This document shows positions 37,078-43,577 of a stretch of 64,000 bases of DNA, in pieces (the first letter of the stretch is position 1; the number at the start of each line of letters is the position of its first letter). Location of the stretch: the sequence record MZ065353.1. The stretch is one strand, 5' to 3'. The translations under genes and the position numbers were made by a program. This DNA is from Escherichia virus KFS-EC3. The notes beneath the pieces are model-generated. The model searched no databases. It saw nothing but the letters and a program-made list of their open reading frames with translations, and had not been told where the DNA came from.

Positions 37078-37346
37078 TGTTTGTTGTTCACACTATTTAT
37101 GAAAATGAAGGTAATACTACACGTGATTACGGTCACGTAAATCAATTTTTTAGATGCAATCCAGAATTCCGAGCTCAAAAAGACGAACGAATTTTTAAAA
37201 AATGTGTAGAGCAAGGTTTCATTTATATCAAGCACTGGATGCAAGGAAATAAAGTTAGAACTACATATCATAGGTCTTTAACTGAGCTTAATGATGAATT
37301 GATTTATAATAGAGCTGTAAATCAAACTCTGAAGGATGAACAATGA
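37077..37346 (+). CDS. hypothetical protein (30.1 position)
   Basis: 89-aa ORF, translationally coupled to neighbours. Confidence 0.55.
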   Translation: MFVVHTIYENEGNTTRDYGHVNQFFRCNPEFRAQKDERIFKKCVEQGFIYIKHWMQGNKVRTTYHRSLTELNDELIYNRAVNQTLKDEQ

Positions 37347-38806
37347 TTCTTAAAATTCTGAATGAAATAGCATCTATTGGATCAACTAAGCAGAAGCAAG
37401 CAATTCTTGAAAAGAATAAAGATAATGAATTGCTTAAACGAGTATATCGTCTAACTTATTCTCGTGGGTTACAGTATTATATCAAGAAATGGCCTAAACC
37501 TGGTATTGCTACCCAGAGTTTTGGAATGCTGACTATTACCGATATGCTTGACTTCATTGAATTCACGTTAGCTACTCGGAAATTGACCGGAAATGCTGCA
37601 ATTGAGGAATTGACTGGATATATCACCGATGGTAAAAAGGATGATGTTGAAGTTTTGCGTCGAGTTATGATGCGAGACCTTGAATGCGGTGCTTCAGTAT
37701 CTATTGCAAACAAAGTTTGGCCAGGTTTAATTCCTGAACAACCTCAAATGCTGGCAAGTTCTTATGATGAAAAAGGCATTAGTAAGAATATCAAGTTTCC
37801 AGCTTTTGCGCAGTTAAAAGCAGATGGAGCTCGGTGTTTTGCTGAAGTCCGAGGTGATGAATTAGATGATGTTCGTCTTTTATCACGAGCTGGTAATGAA
37901 TATCTAGGATTAGATCTTCTTAAGGAAGAATTAATCAAAATGACTGCTGAAGCCCGCCAGATTCATCCAGAAGGTGTGTTAATTGATGGCGAATTGGTAT
38001 ACCATGAGCAAGTTAAAAAGGAACCAGAAGGCCTAGATTTTCTTTTTGATGCTTATCCTGAAATTAGTAAAGCTAAAGAATTCGCCGAAGTAGCGGAATC
38101 TCGTACTACTTCTAATGGAATCGCCAATAAATCCTTAAAAGGAACCATTTCTGAAAAAGAAGCTCAATGCATGAAGTTTCAGGTCTGGGATTATGTCCCG
38201 TTGGTAGAAATATACGGTCTTCCGGCGTTTCGTTTAAAATATGATGTACGTTTTTCTAAACTAGAACAAATGACATCAGGATATGATAAAGTAATTTTAA
38301 TTGAAAACCAGGTAGTAAATAACCTAGATGAAGCTAAGGTAATTTATAAAAAGTATATTGACCAAGGTCTTGAAGGTATTATTCTCAAAAATACCGATGG
38401 ATTGTGGGAAAATGCTCGTTCAAAAAATCTCTATAAATTTAAAGAAGTAATTGATGTTGATTTAAAAATTGTAGGAATTTATCCTCACCGTAAAGACCCT
38501 ACTAAAGCAGGTGGATTTATTCTTGAATCAGAGTGTGGAAAAATTAAAGTAAATGCTGGTTCAGGCTTAAAAGATAAAGCCGGTGTAAAATCACATGAAC
38601 TTGACCGTACTCGCATTATGGAAAACCAAAATTATTATATTGGAAAAATTCTAGAGTGCGAATGCAACGGTTGGCTAAAATCTGATGGCCGCACTGATTA
38701 CGTTAAATTATTTCTTCCGATTGCGATTCGTTTACGTGAAGATAAAACTAAAGCTAATACATTCGAGGATGTATTTGGTGATTTTCATGAGGTAACTGGT
38801 CTATGA
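37343..38806 (+). CDS. 30: ATP-dependent DNA ligase
   Basis: 487 aa, T4 ligase length; adenylation motif KADGAR. Confidence 0.97.
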   Translation: MILKILNEIASIGSTKQKQAILEKNKDNELLKRVYRLTYSRGLQYYIKKWPKPGIATQSFGMLTITDMLDFIEFTLATRKLTGNAAIEELTGYITDGKKDDVEVLRRVMMRDLECGASVSIANKVWPGLIPEQPQMLASSYDEKGISKNIKFPAFAQLKADGARCFAEVRGDELDDVRLLSRAGNEYLGLDLLKEELIKMTAEARQIHPEGVLIDGELVYHEQVKKEPEGLDFLFDAYPEISKAKEFAEVAESRTTSNGIANKSLKGTISEKEAQCMKFQVWDYVPLVEIYGLPAFRLKYDVRFSKLEQMTSGYDKVILIENQVVNNLDEAKVIYKKYIDQGLEGIILKNTDGLWENARSKNLYKFKEVIDVDLKIVGIYPHRKDPTKAGGFILESECGKIKVNAGSGLKDKAGVKSHELDRTRIMENQNYYIGKILECECNGWLKSDGRTDYVKLFLPIAIRLREDKTKANTFEDVFGDFHEVTGL

Positions 38807-38991
38807 AAGCTTACTTAGAAACAATTGTCGTTGCTCAAAAAGAAGGTGGAGATGTTTCTACTTCTGTATCACAAATCGTTCTCGAATTTGTAGATGCATA
38901 TGCTTATAATAAATTTACAGAAACATTTGATGCCTACGAAAAAGGTCCAAAGTTTGAAATATATCGTACTCTCTTACCACTAGATTATTAA
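38803..38991 (+). CDS. hypothetical protein
   Basis: 62-aa ORF, start overlaps ligase stop. Confidence 0.5.
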   Translation: MKAYLETIVVAQKEGGDVSTSVSQIVLEFVDAYAYNKFTETFDAYEKGPKFEIYRTLLPLDY

Positions 38992-39012
38992 AGGCCTTCG
39001 GGCCTTTAATTT
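38992..39012 (+). terminator. hairpin (AGGCC-UUCG-GGCCU) + U-rich tail
   Basis: UUCG tetraloop hairpin followed by TTAATTTT. Confidence 0.5.
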
Positions 39013-39020
39013 TATAAATA
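39013..39020 (+). promoter_or_regulatory. late promoter TATAAATA upstream of alt
   Basis: Exact TATAAATA 24 nt before the alt ATG. Confidence 0.7.
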
Positions 39021-39043
39021 GAATAAACACTAGAGAGGATATG

Positions 39044-41137
39044 ATGGAACTCATTACAGAATTATTTGACGAAGATACTACTCTTCCGATTACAAACTTA
39101 AATCCAAAGAAGAAAATACCACAAATTTTTTCAGTTCATGTTGATGACGCAATTGAACAACCAGGCTTTCGTTTATGTACCTATACATCTGGAGGTGATA
39201 CTAATCGCGATTTAAAAATGGGCGATAAAATGATGCATATTGTTCCTTTTACATTAACTGCTAAAGGTTCAATTGCTAAATTAAAAGGTCTCGGTCCAAG
39301 CCCAATTAATTACATCAATTCAGTTTTTACTGTTGCGATGCAGACGATGCGTCAGTATAAAATTGATGCCTGTATGCTTCGTATTCTTAAGTCTAAAACT
39401 GCTGGTCAAGCTCGACAAATTCAAGTTATTGCTGATAGACTTATCCGCAGTCGTTCAGGTGGCAGATACGTCCTTCTTAAGAAACTCTGGGATTACGATA
39501 AAAAGTATGCATATATTCTTATACATCGCAAAAATGTATCACTAGAAGACATTCCAGGAGTTCCGGAAATTAGCACCGAGCTCTTTACTAAAGTTGAATC
39601 GAAGGTCGGTGATGTTTATATCAATAAAGATACTGGAGCTCAAGTAACTAAAAATGAGGCAATTGCTGCATCTATTGCGCAAGAAAATGATAAACGTTCT
39701 GACCAAGCTGTAATCGTTAAAGTTAAAATTTCCCGTAGAGCAATTGCACAAAGTCAGTCATTAGAATCTTCTAGATTTGAAAGCGAATTATTCCAGAAGT
39801 ATGAATCTACCGCAGCTAATTTCAATAAACCTGCTACCGCTCCTTTAATTCCCGAAGCAGAAGAAATGAAACTTGGAATTAATTCATTAGCTTCTAAAAC
39901 TAAGGCAGCAAAAATTATTGCCGAAGGAACCACAGATGAACTTCATTATGACTATAAATTCTTTTCAAAAAGTGAGGTTAATGAAGTTTCTGAAAAAATT
40001 AAAGACGTAATTTTTAACGCGATCAAAAATGAACCGACTACTTCAATAAAATGTTTAGAGAAGTATGCAGCAGCTATTAATAAATTCTTTGAAGAATATA
40101 AAGATAATTGGCTTGATAAACATAATAAAACCCGTAAAGGACAGCCAGATGAAGTCTGGGAAGAAATGACTAAAAATTCCTGGAACGCAGCAAAAACTAA
40201 ATTCCTCAAAAGAATGATTTATAGTTTTTCTGGAATTGGTGCAGGTCCAATGATTGATATTACTATTGCCCGTGATGGTTCTAAATATACTCCATCACAA
40301 AAGCGCGGCATTAGAGAGTATTGCGGTTCAGGATATACTGACATCAATAATCTTCTTTTAGGACGCTACAATCCAGAACGATATGATGTAATGAGTGAAA
40401 AAGAAATTGAATCTGCTATAAATAACTTAGATTCAGCTTTTGAAAATGGTGACCGTATACCAGAAGGCATTACAGTTTATCGTGCTCAAAGTATGACTGC
40501 TCCTATATACGAAGCACTAGTTAAAAATAAAGTGTTCTATTTCAGAAATTTTGTATCTACTTCTTTAACTCCTATCATTTTTGGACGTTTTGGAATTACA
40601 CATGCTGGTATTGGTCTTTTAGAACCAGAAGCTCGTAATGAACTGACAGTTGATAAAAATGAAGAAGGAATAACTATTAATCCAAACGAAATAAGAGCGT
40701 ATAAAGAAAATCCTGAATACGTTAAAGTTCAAATAGGATGGGCAATTGATGGAGCTCATAAAGTTAATGTTGTATATCCAGGAAGTCTCGGAATAGCAAC
40801 AGAAGCTGAAGTTATTCTACCACGCGGATTGATGGTCAAAGTTAATAAAATAACTGATGCTTCTAATAATGACGGAACAACATCTAATAATACAAAACTC
40901 ATTCAAGCTGAAGTTATGACTACGGAAGAACTCACCGAATCAGTAATTTATGACGGTGATCGTCTAATGGAAACTGGTGAAGTAGTTGCAATGACAGGTG
41001 ATATTGAAATAGAAGACAGAGTTGACTTTGCATCATTTGTTTCATCAAATGTTAAACAAAAAGTAGAATCATCTCTTGGAATTATTGCGTCTTGCATAGA
41101 TATTACAAACATGCCTTACAAGTTCGTTCAAGGATAA
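39044..41137 (+). CDS. alt: Alt ADP-ribosyltransferase (packaged, injected)
   Basis: 697 aa; N-terminus MELITELFDEDTTLPITNLNPKKKIPQIF matches recalled T4 Alt; C-terminal R / STS / ExE motifs (YRAQ, FVSTSL, EAEVILPRG). Confidence 0.85.
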   Translation: MELITELFDEDTTLPITNLNPKKKIPQIFSVHVDDAIEQPGFRLCTYTSGGDTNRDLKMGDKMMHIVPFTLTAKGSIAKLKGLGPSPINYINSVFTVAMQTMRQYKIDACMLRILKSKTAGQARQIQVIADRLIRSRSGGRYVLLKKLWDYDKKYAYILIHRKNVSLEDIPGVPEISTELFTKVESKVGDVYINKDTGAQVTKNEAIAASIAQENDKRSDQAVIVKVKISRRAIAQSQSLESSRFESELFQKYESTAANFNKPATAPLIPEAEEMKLGINSLASKTKAAKIIAEGTTDELHYDYKFFSKSEVNEVSEKIKDVIFNAIKNEPTTSIKCLEKYAAAINKFFEEYKDNWLDKHNKTRKGQPDEVWEEMTKNSWNAAKTKFLKRMIYSFSGIGAGPMIDITIARDGSKYTPSQKRGIREYCGSGYTDINNLLLGRYNPERYDVMSEKEIESAINNLDSAFENGDRIPEGITVYRAQSMTAPIYEALVKNKVFYFRNFVSTSLTPIIFGRFGITHAGIGLLEPEARNELTVDKNEEGITINPNEIRAYKENPEYVKVQIGWAIDGAHKVNVVYPGSLGIATEAEVILPRGLMVKVNKITDASNNDGTTSNNTKLIQAEVMTTEELTESVIYDGDRLMETGEVVAMTGDIEIEDRVDFASFVSSNVKQKVESSLGIIASCIDITNMPYKFVQG

Positions 41138-41140
41138 ATC

Positions 41141-43198
41141 ATGGAACTTATTACAGAATTATTTGACGGCGCTTCGGCGCCGGTTGTTAACTTAAATCCT
41201 AAGCATAAAATACCTCAAATTTTTGCTATTCAAGCCGGTGAAGAAAGCGTGCTTCCTGGATTTAGATTTTGTACATACACCTCTGGCGGTGATACAAATA
41301 AAAACGTTAAGCCAGGCGATAAAATGATGCATATCGTAATGATAGGTGTCAATGAGAAACTATCATTAGTTAAACTTAAAAACTTGGGTGGAAATCCAAT
41401 TGGTGTCATTAATGCGGTTTTTGATACTGCTCTTCAAACAATGAAACAGTATAAAATTGATGCATGCCTATTCCGCGTACTAAAAAGTAAAACAAATGGC
41501 GCAGCTCGTCAAATGCAAGTTATTGCTGACCGTTTAGTACGTACTAAAGGAGCAGGTCGATATGTTCTTTTAAAGGAAATCTGGGATTATGATAAAAAGT
41601 ATGCATATATTATGGTTTACCGTAAAAATGCCAATTTAAAAGACATTCCAGGTGTACCTCCTATTTCAACTGAGTTATTCACAAAAGTTGAATCAAAGGT
41701 TGGTGATGTTTATGTAGATGTTAAAACAGGTAATGCTGTTCCTAAAGCTGTTGCTGTTGCTGCTTCTATTGCTTTAGAAAATGATAAGCGCACGGATCAA
41801 GCTGTTATTCAGAAAACTAAAATTAGTCGTCGATTGGCAGCACAAGCTCAATATTCTACTGTCGATGCTTCGCTTCAGGGTGATAGCTTCGCTGCCAAGA
41901 AATATCAAGAGTTTGAATCTAAAGTTCCGGTATATAAAGCAGAAGGACCAATGAACTCTGGTGTTATTCAGATTGGTTCAAACTTCGGCAAAGGAGCTAT
42001 CGGTGGTATGAGAAGTGCTTCTCGTTTTAAATCTAACGATTATGAACTAGAAAGCTTCCGAAATCATATTGCATTGGCCCATGCACGTTTACGTGATCCG
42101 TCTATCAGACTGCAGAGCGATATAACACATCAAGGTTCTCAAGAATATTTAAAGAATAAAGAATTTTTTGATTATAAAACCGATAAAATTTTGAGCGATC
42201 TCGCTGACATTAATATTTCTAATAGCTTTGATGTTATTAAGAAAATTATCAATGATTTAGTTAAAGGTTCTAAAGCCACACCAGACGAAAAGGTAGCTAT
42301 TATTCAATTTGTCATGAATGGCATTTATAAATTGATTAATGAATCTGCTGCTCAGGCATATGAATACGCAAGCACCGAAGTAACTCCAAAAGGACTGACT
42401 CAGGCTGAGTCTGATGTAATTGAAGATTATTGTGCAGATTCATATGTTGAAATGAACTCGTTCCTCTTGGGTAAACCAGATTCTACCCGTGAAGAATATA
42501 TGGAACGAGCTATTAAACACATCGAGACGCTGGATTCTGCCTTTGCCAAAGGTTCAGTTCTTCCTCCAGGAACTACGCTTTATCGTGGACAAGAAGTTAC
42601 TTTTAAAACTTTACGCCATAATATTGAAAATAAAATGTTCTATTTCAAGAACTTCGTATCAACATCGCTTAAACCAAATATCTTCGGTGAGCATGGTAAA
42701 AACTATATGGCTCTAGATGATTCCGGCGCAGTATTTTCTGGTGAAGGAGAAGGTTCTGTTGATGCTGAAGATTTAATGCATATGGGCAGTCATTCTGCTT
42801 ATGCGAATGAAGATGCTGAAACTAGCGTAGGTATGGTAATAAAAGGAGCTGAGCGAATTAAAGTTATCGTTCCAGGTCATTTATCGGGATTTCCATCAGA
42901 AGCTGAAGTTATTCTACCGCGTGGAATTTTGTTGAAGATTAATAAAGTAAGCACGTACATGATGAAAGAAACTGCTTATAACAAGTATCTAATCGAAGGC
43001 ACAATCGTTCCTCCTTCTGAACAATTAGAAGAATCGGTATATGATGGCGATCATCTAATGGAAACTGGTGAAGTTCGTCCAATGGCTGGGTTTAATCAAT
43101 TCCTTGTAGAAGAATCAAAAGAAGAGGAAAACGAAGTTTCTCAAATCTTGGCTTCTTTGGTTAACATCAACGGAATGTCTAAAAAGTTCAAGATGTAG
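41141..43198 (+). CDS. second Alt-like ADP-ribosyltransferase paralog
   Basis: 685 aa; conserved N-terminus and C-terminal ART motifs (YRGQ, FVSTSL, EAEVILPRG), divergent central region; starts 3 nt after alt stop. Confidence 0.8.
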   Translation: MELITELFDGASAPVVNLNPKHKIPQIFAIQAGEESVLPGFRFCTYTSGGDTNKNVKPGDKMMHIVMIGVNEKLSLVKLKNLGGNPIGVINAVFDTALQTMKQYKIDACLFRVLKSKTNGAARQMQVIADRLVRTKGAGRYVLLKEIWDYDKKYAYIMVYRKNANLKDIPGVPPISTELFTKVESKVGDVYVDVKTGNAVPKAVAVAASIALENDKRTDQAVIQKTKISRRLAAQAQYSTVDASLQGDSFAAKKYQEFESKVPVYKAEGPMNSGVIQIGSNFGKGAIGGMRSASRFKSNDYELESFRNHIALAHARLRDPSIRLQSDITHQGSQEYLKNKEFFDYKTDKILSDLADINISNSFDVIKKIINDLVKGSKATPDEKVAIIQFVMNGIYKLINESAAQAYEYASTEVTPKGLTQAESDVIEDYCADSYVEMNSFLLGKPDSTREEYMERAIKHIETLDSAFAKGSVLPPGTTLYRGQEVTFKTLRHNIENKMFYFKNFVSTSLKPNIFGEHGKNYMALDDSGAVFSGEGEGSVDAEDLMHMGSHSAYANEDAETSVGMVIKGAERIKVIVPGHLSGFPSEAEVILPRGILLKINKVSTYMMKETAYNKYLIEGTIVPPSEQLEESVYDGDHLMETGEVRPMAGFNQFLVEESKEEENEVSQILASLVNINGMSKKFKM

Positions 43199-43250
43199 TT
43201 TACAAGTCCCTCGTGTTGTGTTATAGTAATCTTACTGACATAACATGAGG
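43198..43250 (+). promoter_or_regulatory. early promoter within 53-bp repeat, copy 2
   Basis: Differs from copy 1 (27568-27620) at one position; GTTTAC begins at the last nt of the alt-paralog stop codon. Confidence 0.55.
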
Positions 43251-43258
43251 AACACAAA

Positions 43259-43549
43259 ATGAAATCTTCTTTACGCTTTTTAGGTCAAGAACTTGTAGTT
43301 GAAGGCGTTATTCCTGCTGATAACGCTTTTAATGAAGCAGTTTATGATGAATTTATCAAAATTTTTGGAACAGATAAAAAGTTCGGAATTTTTCCTTCTG
43401 AAAATTTTTCAAAGCCAGAACAGACTGAAAGCATTTTCCAAGGTGTAGTAACAGGTAAATTTGAGTCAGAAGCTCCGGTAAAAATTGAAGTTTATATTGA
43501 AGACAGTTTAGTTGCTTCAGTTGCTGCTTTCATTTCATTCCGTAAATAA
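43259..43549 (+). CDS. hypothetical protein
   Basis: 96-aa ORF with GAGGA RBS downstream of repeat copy 2. Confidence 0.55.
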   Translation: MKSSLRFLGQELVVEGVIPADNAFNEAVYDEFIKIFGTDKKFGIFPSENFSKPEQTESIFQGVVTGKFESEAPVKIEVYIEDSLVASVAAFISFRK

Positions 43550-43573
43550 AAATATGGGGACCTTTCGGTCCCC
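43545..43573 (-). terminator. hairpin terminator after gene 54 (GGGGACC-UUUC-GGUCCCC)
   Basis: Stem-loop followed by U-rich tract on the minus strand. Confidence 0.55.
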
Positions 43574-43577
43574 ATTG

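Follow-up and report, generated by a model that had tools for sequence, protein, structure and literature searches.

Why does a T4-like phage carry a second alt-like gene directly behind alt, and what might its product do? We investigated this question in a 64,000-nucleotide stretch of Escherichia virus KFS-EC3 (sequence record MZ065353.1; the window), in which positions 39,013 to 43,198 hold two adjacent open reading frames (ORFs) of 697 and 685 aa, here called copy 1 and copy 2. Their coordinates and lengths, as well as the start of copy 2 3 nt past the copy 1 stop codon (41135-41137), match an earlier note made from the sequence alone, which had proposed two virion-delivered ADP-ribosyltransferases (ARTs). 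On the basis of observed gene structure, homology, motif conservation, fold, purifying selection, distribution and a deletion in T4, the locus of this T4-like phage (Tequatrovirus) is probably a late operon of two genes, whose products would be paralogous mono-ADP-ribosyltransferases packaged in the head. Both the sequence of the gene pair and its annotation are already known, and the present analysis is a pointer to a neglected gene, not a discovery. The two genes, both on the plus strand, and their landmarks are as follows.

39044-41137, plus strand: copy 1, alt (T2-type allele), 697 aa
Copy 1, N-terminal part: predicted N-propeptide MELITE, followed by an N-terminal alpha/beta domain up to residue ~238 and a helical central region (239-412)
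40481-40483: copy 1 R480
40556-40564: copy 1 S505-T-S507
40802-40810: copy 1 E587-A-E589
40931-40939: copy 1 LTE630-632
40940-41134: copy 1 predicted C-propeptide, residues 633-697
41141-43198, plus strand: copy 2, full-length Alt paralogue, 685 aa
Copy 2, N-terminal part: predicted N-propeptide MELITE, N-terminal domain to residue ~238
41855-42385: copy 2 helical central region, residues 239-415
42584-42586: copy 2 R482
42659-42667: copy 2 S507-T-S509
42899-42907: copy 2 E587-A-E589
43025-43033: copy 2 LEE629-631
43034-43195: copy 2 predicted C-propeptide, residues 632-685

Pairwise alignment of the two ORFs reveals full-length homology with 41% identity end to end (E = 5e-156), and every N- and C-terminal motif quoted in the earlier note is found in both copies. 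Identity is unevenly distributed, with 55-78% over residues 1-235, 8-20% over residues ~240-415, 28-48% in the ART domain, which contains a poorly aligned insert at ~520-575, and 30-45% in the C-terminal tail. The strong central divergence noted before is therefore real, but it extends over ~180 residues (roughly 239-415) plus a ~50-residue variable insert in the ART domain rather than over roughly 300 residues. The motif YDGD[RH]LMETGEV is likewise shared but does not belong to the catalytic module, as it lies past the C-terminal site of the prohead protease gp21, within the propeptide that is cut off T4 Alt.

Both genes encode Alt-family proteins with the R-S-E residues of ADP-ribosyltransferases, and the activity of copy 2 is predicted from its conserved motifs. 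The Pfam family PF03496 (ADPrib_exo_Tox, cut-off 23.4 bits) matches copy 1 with 129 bits (E = 1.8e-37) and copy 2 with 72.8 bits (E = 3.1e-20), and PHROG 802 (phrog_802, 'Alt-like RNA polymerase ADP-ribosyltransferase') matches them at E = 5e-272 and 3e-255, respectively. Arg, Ser-Thr-Ser and Glu-x-Glu are present in the correct order in both copies. In alignments of copy 1 and of the family profile with solved enzymes (CDTa, BECa/CPILE-a and a C3-like enzyme), these residues fall on the catalytic Arg and (E/Q)-x-E. A sequence search with copy 2 against PDB chains gave no match, whereas the family profile and copy 1 did match ARTs. The AlphaFold2 model of copy 2, with a mean pLDDT (predicted local distance difference test score) of 75, consists of an alpha/beta domain (12-238), a helical region (~250-470), an ART domain (480-625) and a low-confidence tail (629-685). 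Foldseek comparison of this model returned Vis toxin (E = 6e-8, target template modelling score 0.66-0.70), C3bot, CDTa, iota Ia, VIP2 and Certhrax, with E values between 6e-8 and 1e-4 for the first five, so that structure prediction yields an ART fold with confident toxin matches for the C-terminal domain of copy 2. In addition, R482, S507, S509, E587, E589, E6 and E631 of copy 2 do not vary among 22 homologues with identities as low as 42%. The R / S-T-S / E-x-E signature of ADP-ribosylating toxins read from the sequence earlier is thus borne out by PF03496, phrog_802, the alignment with solved enzymes and the fold of copy 2, and the catalytic Glu-x-Glu whose absence from copy 2 had been named as an objection is present as E587-A-E589. 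T4 Alt E577A is catalytically dead (PMC11404850); numbered from the upstream ATG, E577 is the second Glu of E-x-E. An E-x-E motif, as opposed to Q-x-E, predicts an arginine acceptor (PMC8120803), and arginine is accordingly the predicted acceptor for both copies.

Processing sites provide the predicted link to the virion. In T4 Alt, mass spectrometry mapped cuts at ITE-6 and LTE-619, which remove six residues from the N-terminus and 63 from the C-terminus and leave a mature protein of 68.2 kDa (PMC5694885); each T4 head contains ~40 copies (PMC9026906). The computed mass of T4 Alt residues 7-619 is also 68.2 kDa, confirming the numbering. The I-T-E at residues 4-6 that had been proposed as a gp21 site is the published ITE-6 site of T4 Alt, and sites homologous to those of T4 Alt are found at both ends of copy 1 (MELITE/L and EELTE/SVIYDGD, the slash marking the cut) and copy 2 (MELITE/L and EQLEE/SVYDGD). 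E6 and E631 are invariant across the family and the gp21 motifs are positionally conserved in both copies, cleavage itself having been demonstrated for T4 Alt only. The predicted mature forms of copy 1 and copy 2 have masses of 70.2 kDa and 69.1 kDa, respectively, with isoelectric points (pI) of 8.1-8.5, and the predicted removed tails are acidic (pI 4.2-4.6). Packaging and cleavage of copy 2 are predicted from these conserved features, and its expression is a prediction too. As regards two virion-delivered ARTs, copy 1 is indeed Alt, but delivery and activity had been overstated for copy 2, for which they are predicted from conserved motifs only.

The regions that set the copies apart are those that may be involved in target choice. 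By hhalign, the T2-type and T4-type alt alleles prove homologous in their central regions (99.3% probability, 27% identity), whereas residues 236-418 of copy 2 match either allele at a probability of less than 1%. In C3-like enzymes the ADP-ribosylating toxin turn-turn (ARTT) loop precedes E-x-E, and the sequence at this position is SLGIAT-EAE for copy 1, LSGFPS-EAE for copy 2 and SLAPSN-EME for T4. Because the central region and the residues before E-x-E differ, different sets of host targets would be expected for the two proteins. Known substrates of T4 Alt are RNA polymerase alpha (Arg265), EF-Tu and MazF, with at least 27 proteins in all (PMC8120803). The suggestion that the two enzymes have different targets is plausible given central domains that are unrelated at the profile level; both the distinct targets and the enzymatic activity of copy 2 are predictions from sequence.

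The pair lies behind a single late-promoter box and is bounded by the following signals.

38990-39007, plus strand: GC-rich terminator-like hairpin AAAGGCC-TTCG-GGCCTTT after alt.1, ending the gene 30/alt.1 unit
39013-39020, plus strand: late-promoter box TATAAATA of the alt operon, directly after the hairpin and 23 nt before the ATG at 39044
39033-39039, plus strand: Shine-Dalgarno sequence GAGAGGA of copy 1, whose spacing favours the ATG at 39044 (the T4 annotation)
41130-41134, plus strand: Shine-Dalgarno sequence AAGGA of copy 2, in the last codons of copy 1 and 6 nt before the copy 2 ATG
43199-43227, plus strand: T4-early-type promoter (GTTTACA, 17 nt, TG-TATAGT) for alt.-3, directly after the copy 2 stop

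The late-promoter box claimed before copy 1 is present and T4 alt is a late gene (PMC9697503). The layout of hairpin, TATAAATA, Shine-Dalgarno sequence (GAGG) and ATG is kept in 10 of the 10 Tequatrovirus loci compared, T4 included. A counterpart of the hairpin is annotated as a terminator in phages Ge15 and fPS-65; a consensus terminator scan missed it in the window as its T-run is interrupted. The promoter and terminator scan found no terminator-like site between copy 1 and copy 2, and the copy 2 AAGGA, identical across all loci compared and also found ahead of alt.-1 in T4, suggests translational coupling of copy 2 by its position inside the end of copy 1. A second TATAAATA within copy 1 (40417-40424), 724 nt upstream of copy 2, was considered as a copy 2 promoter and set aside as probably coincidental, since it encodes A-I-N-N of the conserved ESAINNLDSAF. 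The early promoter at 43199-43227, at the same place as a 'predicted early promoter' annotated in fPS-65, marks the 3' limit of the coding content of the late alt operon. Counts from a scan of the window for sigma-70 promoters and terminators are no higher than the shuffled expectation, and the only meaningful calls are this early-type promoter before alt.-3 and a bidirectional terminator after alt.-3. Copy 1 opens with two successive in-frame ATGs (39041-39046, ATGATGGAA), kept in all loci, the first of which (39041, 3 nt upstream) would give a protein of 698 aa. This double ATG probably explains the inconsistent published numbering of Alt (six- versus seven-residue propeptide; E577 versus E576). 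In T4 (locus L001), 5 bp between TATAAATA and the Shine-Dalgarno sequence are duplicated in tandem (AGAAT-AGAAT), a duplication that is absent from the window (39020-39030) and all other loci.

T4 itself retains a remnant of copy 2. As the earlier note has it, there is one intact alt in T4; its genome (NC_000866) carries alt (682 aa), alt.-1 (61 aa) and alt.-2 (67 aa), followed by alt.-3, and the record describes alt.-1/alt.-2 as an old duplication of the first part of alt. Between the end of copy 1 and position 41488, T4 DNA agrees with the window at 96-97%, and the match resumes at 43179, and the DNA of alt.-1/alt.-2 (NP_049810, NP_049809) is 96% identical to the first 348 nt of copy 2. The two endpoints coincide with a direct repeat.

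41480-41488, plus strand: left 9-bp direct repeat CTAAAAAGT, left endpoint of the T4 deletion
43179-43187, plus strand: right 9-bp direct repeat CTAAAAAGT, right endpoint of the T4 deletion

T4 thus lacks 1,699 bp of copy 2, lost between the two CTAAAAAGT repeats, and a 1-nt deletion in an A-run causes the frameshift that splits alt.-1 from alt.-2. The PHROG families of alt.-1/alt.-2 match copy 2 at 2e-40 and 3e-38, far better than copy 1 (2e-40 versus 1e-21). The deletion at the repeats together with these matches indicates that the single-alt state of T4 is derived and that copy 2 is the intact ancestor of alt.-1/alt.-2. We rejected the reading of alt.-1/alt.-2 as an incipient partial duplication, as a full-length copy 2 orthologue exists in a Dhakavirus-like phage and the T4 breakpoint falls at a 9-bp repeat of which intact genes hold both copies, one at each end.

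Copy 1 is alt in its T2-type allele. It is the positional orthologue of T4 Alt (NP_049811 / P12726), between alt.1 and gene 54, and is 69.5% identical to it and 98.3% identical to T2 alt, while copy 2 is 41% identical to T4 Alt over the full length. T2-type alleles (at least 90% identity) occupy position 1 in ~317 records and T4-type alleles (60-80% band) in 214; here and below, distribution counts refer to GenBank phage records, a scan of IMG/VR having given 5 loci. Each of the two alt alleles is found both with and without an intact copy 2, which makes four combinations; among the loci compared, L006 combines the T2-type allele with the deletion and L003 and L008 combine the T4-type allele with an intact copy 2. 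Between phages alt is mosaic, with an abrupt drop in identity over ~260-420 between copy 1 and T4 alt (L001 5455-7503, minus strand), which looks as if two alt alleles had exchanged the central and ART part as a cassette. The Dhakavirus-like orthologue is nearer to the T2-type than to the T4-type allele (65% versus 39% in the central region).

Copy 2 is widespread. A megablast search with the 5-kb locus returned 544 phage records, 356 of them with one match covering at least 80% of the query; the matches listed have 97-98.5% identity, and 'Alt-like RNA polymerase ADP-ribosyltransferase (x2)' is a frequent annotation. A tblastn search places copy 2 at 90% identity or more in 401 records, RB3, RB33, RB68 and T2 among them, and nearly all others fall below 60%, a pattern expected of a discrete, tightly conserved orthologous group. 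In some records, including T2 and RB33, copy 2 is labelled 'hypothetical protein'. The T4 deletion junction is found in 91 phage records, including the natural isolates RB55, RB59, HY03, ACG-C40 and slur phages. The two-gene arrangement is consequently not unusual but the annotated majority state in Tequatrovirus, and both Nolan et al. (2006) and the GenBank record of T4 had already pointed out the paralogy. The possibility raised earlier of an annotated norm with both genes characterised holds for relatives as far as the norm is concerned, but T4 itself has one intact alt and we found no paper that characterises copy 2.

The pair is also old and maintained. In the Dhakavirus-like phage vB_EcoM_CUA3, the tandem pair recurs as genes for 694 and 707 aa, again 3 nt apart; gene 1 of this phage is nearest to copy 1 (57%) and gene 2 to copy 2 (48%, versus 32% to copy 1). 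Gene 2 equals the 707-aa Alt protein of phage JS10, a member of Dhakavirus, in length and in identity to copy 2. Orthologues of both genes in a Dhakavirus-like phage indicate that the duplication is older than the divergence of these genera. The median ratio of nonsynonymous to synonymous substitution rates (dN/dS) of copy 2 is 0.04 with dS up to 0.25 (Nei-Gojobori, 8 sequences), with 0.02 in the N-terminal domain, 0.08 in the central region, 0.03 in the ART domain and 0.01 in the C-terminal tail. For copy 1 it is 0.066 (7 T2-type sequences). The copy 2 ORF is intact (685 codons) in all 8 loci compared. Copy 2 is a maintained gene under strong purifying selection and not a decaying duplicate. 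Shortened copy 2 clusters (P0006, P0008 and P0010, with 624, 528 and 415 aa, 98% identity and 36, 7 and 12 members, respectively) may represent other pseudogenisation events or gene-calling artefacts.

In the proposed explanation, one TATAAATA late promoter after the alt.1 terminator would drive alt and a translationally coupled copy 2. The shared N-terminal alpha/beta module (~235 residues) and the acidic C-terminal tail may direct both products into the prohead core, and gp21 would trim six N-terminal residues (after I-T-E) and the last 54-65 (after L-x-E, before SV.YDGD), giving basic mature enzymes of ~69-70 kDa that would be injected with the DNA. The R / S-T-S / E-x-E domain (C3/VIP2/iota class) would then transfer ADP-ribose from NAD+ to arginines of host proteins, with the divergent helical region and the loop before E-x-E giving each copy its own host targets; T4 lost copy 2 through the 1,699-bp deletion between 9-bp repeats. 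Several observations weigh against this explanation. About 18% of related records, natural isolates included, are without copy 2, indicating that it is dispensable at least on some hosts. L/I-x-E triplets are common (7-9 per protein) and the motif alone is weak evidence, so that the packaging argument rests on a position shared with the cleavage sites known from T4 Alt. Across the window, the TATAAATA octamer shows no enrichment (14 matches versus 9 +/- 3 expected); its count alone proves nothing and the weight rests on its conserved position. In the literature we found no paper characterising copy 2 biochemically and no trace of it in a virion proteome; in the single candidate table, that of fD1 (PMC8309999 supplement), the rows from g189 to g203, where the alt genes are expected, are illegible.

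Three other explanations were weighed. Copy 2 could be a redundant duplicate, packaged and active on the targets of Alt (RNA polymerase alpha Arg265 and others), that provides an extra dose or a backup. The common architecture, operon and catalytic motifs, including the E-x-E of arginine specificity, are in keeping with this, as are the loss of copy 2 in T4 and 90 other records without a known phenotype and the fact that Alt is non-essential with many substrates (PMC9026906, PMC8120803). We nevertheless regard redundancy as unlikely: the paralogues have been separate since before the split of Tequatrovirus and Dhakavirus, with a distinct orthologue for each, purifying selection on both is strong, their ~180-residue central regions are unrelated at the profile level with SLGIAT facing LSGFPS before E-x-E, and such duplicates seldom last this long in phage genomes. 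It is quite improbable that copy 2 is made late but stays unpackaged and acts within the cell that makes it, for instance on phage or host proteins while virions assemble. The capsid accommodates only ~40 copies of Alt (PMC9026906) and no proteomic trace of copy 2 in virions was found in the literature, as this alternative would have it, but a dN/dS of 0.02 over the N-terminal 238 residues, the retention of MELITE and of the L-x-E/SV.YDGD..METGE tail and the invariance of E6 and E631 argue for packaging, since in T4 Alt the only known use of these features is prohead incorporation and gp21 processing.

That copy 2 is decaying or catalytically dead, either a structural core component only or a pseudogene-to-be as in T4, is very improbable. 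Such a fate would agree with the mere remnant in T4 and 90 other records and with the few shortened clusters (415-624 aa, 98% identical) in public data; it is contradicted by 685 intact codons in 8 of 8 loci, by an ART-domain dN/dS of 0.03, by catalytic R, S, S, E and E residues invariant down to 42% identity and by a predicted ART fold with confident matches.

Knowledge of phage-injected ADP-ribosylation comes almost entirely from T4, the exception in its genus. Reviews count three T4 ARTs, namely Alt, ModA and ModB (PMC8120803), a picture that omits a predicted enzyme encoded by most of the genus, T2 included. Copy 2 is conserved and its product is probably an injected enzyme, whose putative target-recognition region is unrelated to that of Alt; it has been overlooked because T4 lost it. 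Tentatively, we suggest that it may be a fourth T-even ART, unstudied because T4 deleted it, that is injected and acts on non-Alt targets such as a defence or translation factor. Its polymorphism (~80% intact, ~18% with one shared deletion) might then reflect host-dependent costs and benefits, for example the evasion or triggering of defence systems. The locus opens a comparison of ADP-ribosylomes with and without each gene.

Both copies sit between gene 30/alt.1 and alt.-3/gene 54, behind the late-promoter box, in T4-type gene order. The neighbouring genes are listed below.

37343-38806, plus strand: DNA ligase gp30
38803-38991, plus strand: alt.1 (62 aa), with a 4-nt overlap with the ligase stop
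43259-43549, plus strand: alt.-3, 96 aa, DUF5498 / PF17602

Downstream of alt.-3, gp54 and then gp48 are encoded on the minus strand. The alt.1 product matches the Pfam family PF24647 'Phage_blade' (E = 1e-29). Next to the variable alt locus lies alt.-3, a gene with a link to anti-defence: mutants in which T4 Alt.-3 is extended at its C-terminus escape the CmdTAC defence system (PMC11618068). Between the convergent alt.-3 and gene 54, a perfect hairpin with a 9-bp stem (ATGGGGACC-TTTC-GGTCCCCAT, 43554-43575) scores as a terminator on both strands; fPS-65 annotates both strands and Ge15 one.

Compared with known systems, the window is another instance of the pair found in T2, RB33, fPS-65 and hundreds of Tequatrovirus phages, with 97-99.9% protein identity, the same 3-nt spacer, frequent annotation as '(x2)' or 'alt.-2' and no material difference. 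T4 Alt shares promoter, hairpin and both gp21 sites with copy 1, and the N-terminal 235 residues are ~100% and the C-terminus 72-90% identical, whereas identity is 8-30% in the central region and 60-70% in the ART domain, which has a 13-residue insert. In the more distant genera of Aeromonas phage 44RR and phage RB49, adjacent full or partial alt duplications were already noted (Nolan et al. 2006, PMC1524935). The catalytic fold predicted for copy 2 and the R / S-T-S / (E/Q)-x-E residues recur in other PF03496 ARTs, namely C3 exoenzymes, VIP2, iota Ia, CDTa and Vis. In contrast, they are only 13-21% identical, do not have the Alt N-terminal module and gp21 propeptides, and bacterial PF03496 toxins are delivered via secretion or binary-toxin pores and not by a phage head. 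T4 ModA and ModB, from the same phage group, are also R-S-E arginine mono-ADP-ribosyltransferases (PMC5512222, PMC8120803), but by description these are set apart as ~200-residue early proteins that are unpackaged and possess neither the N-terminal module nor the propeptides.

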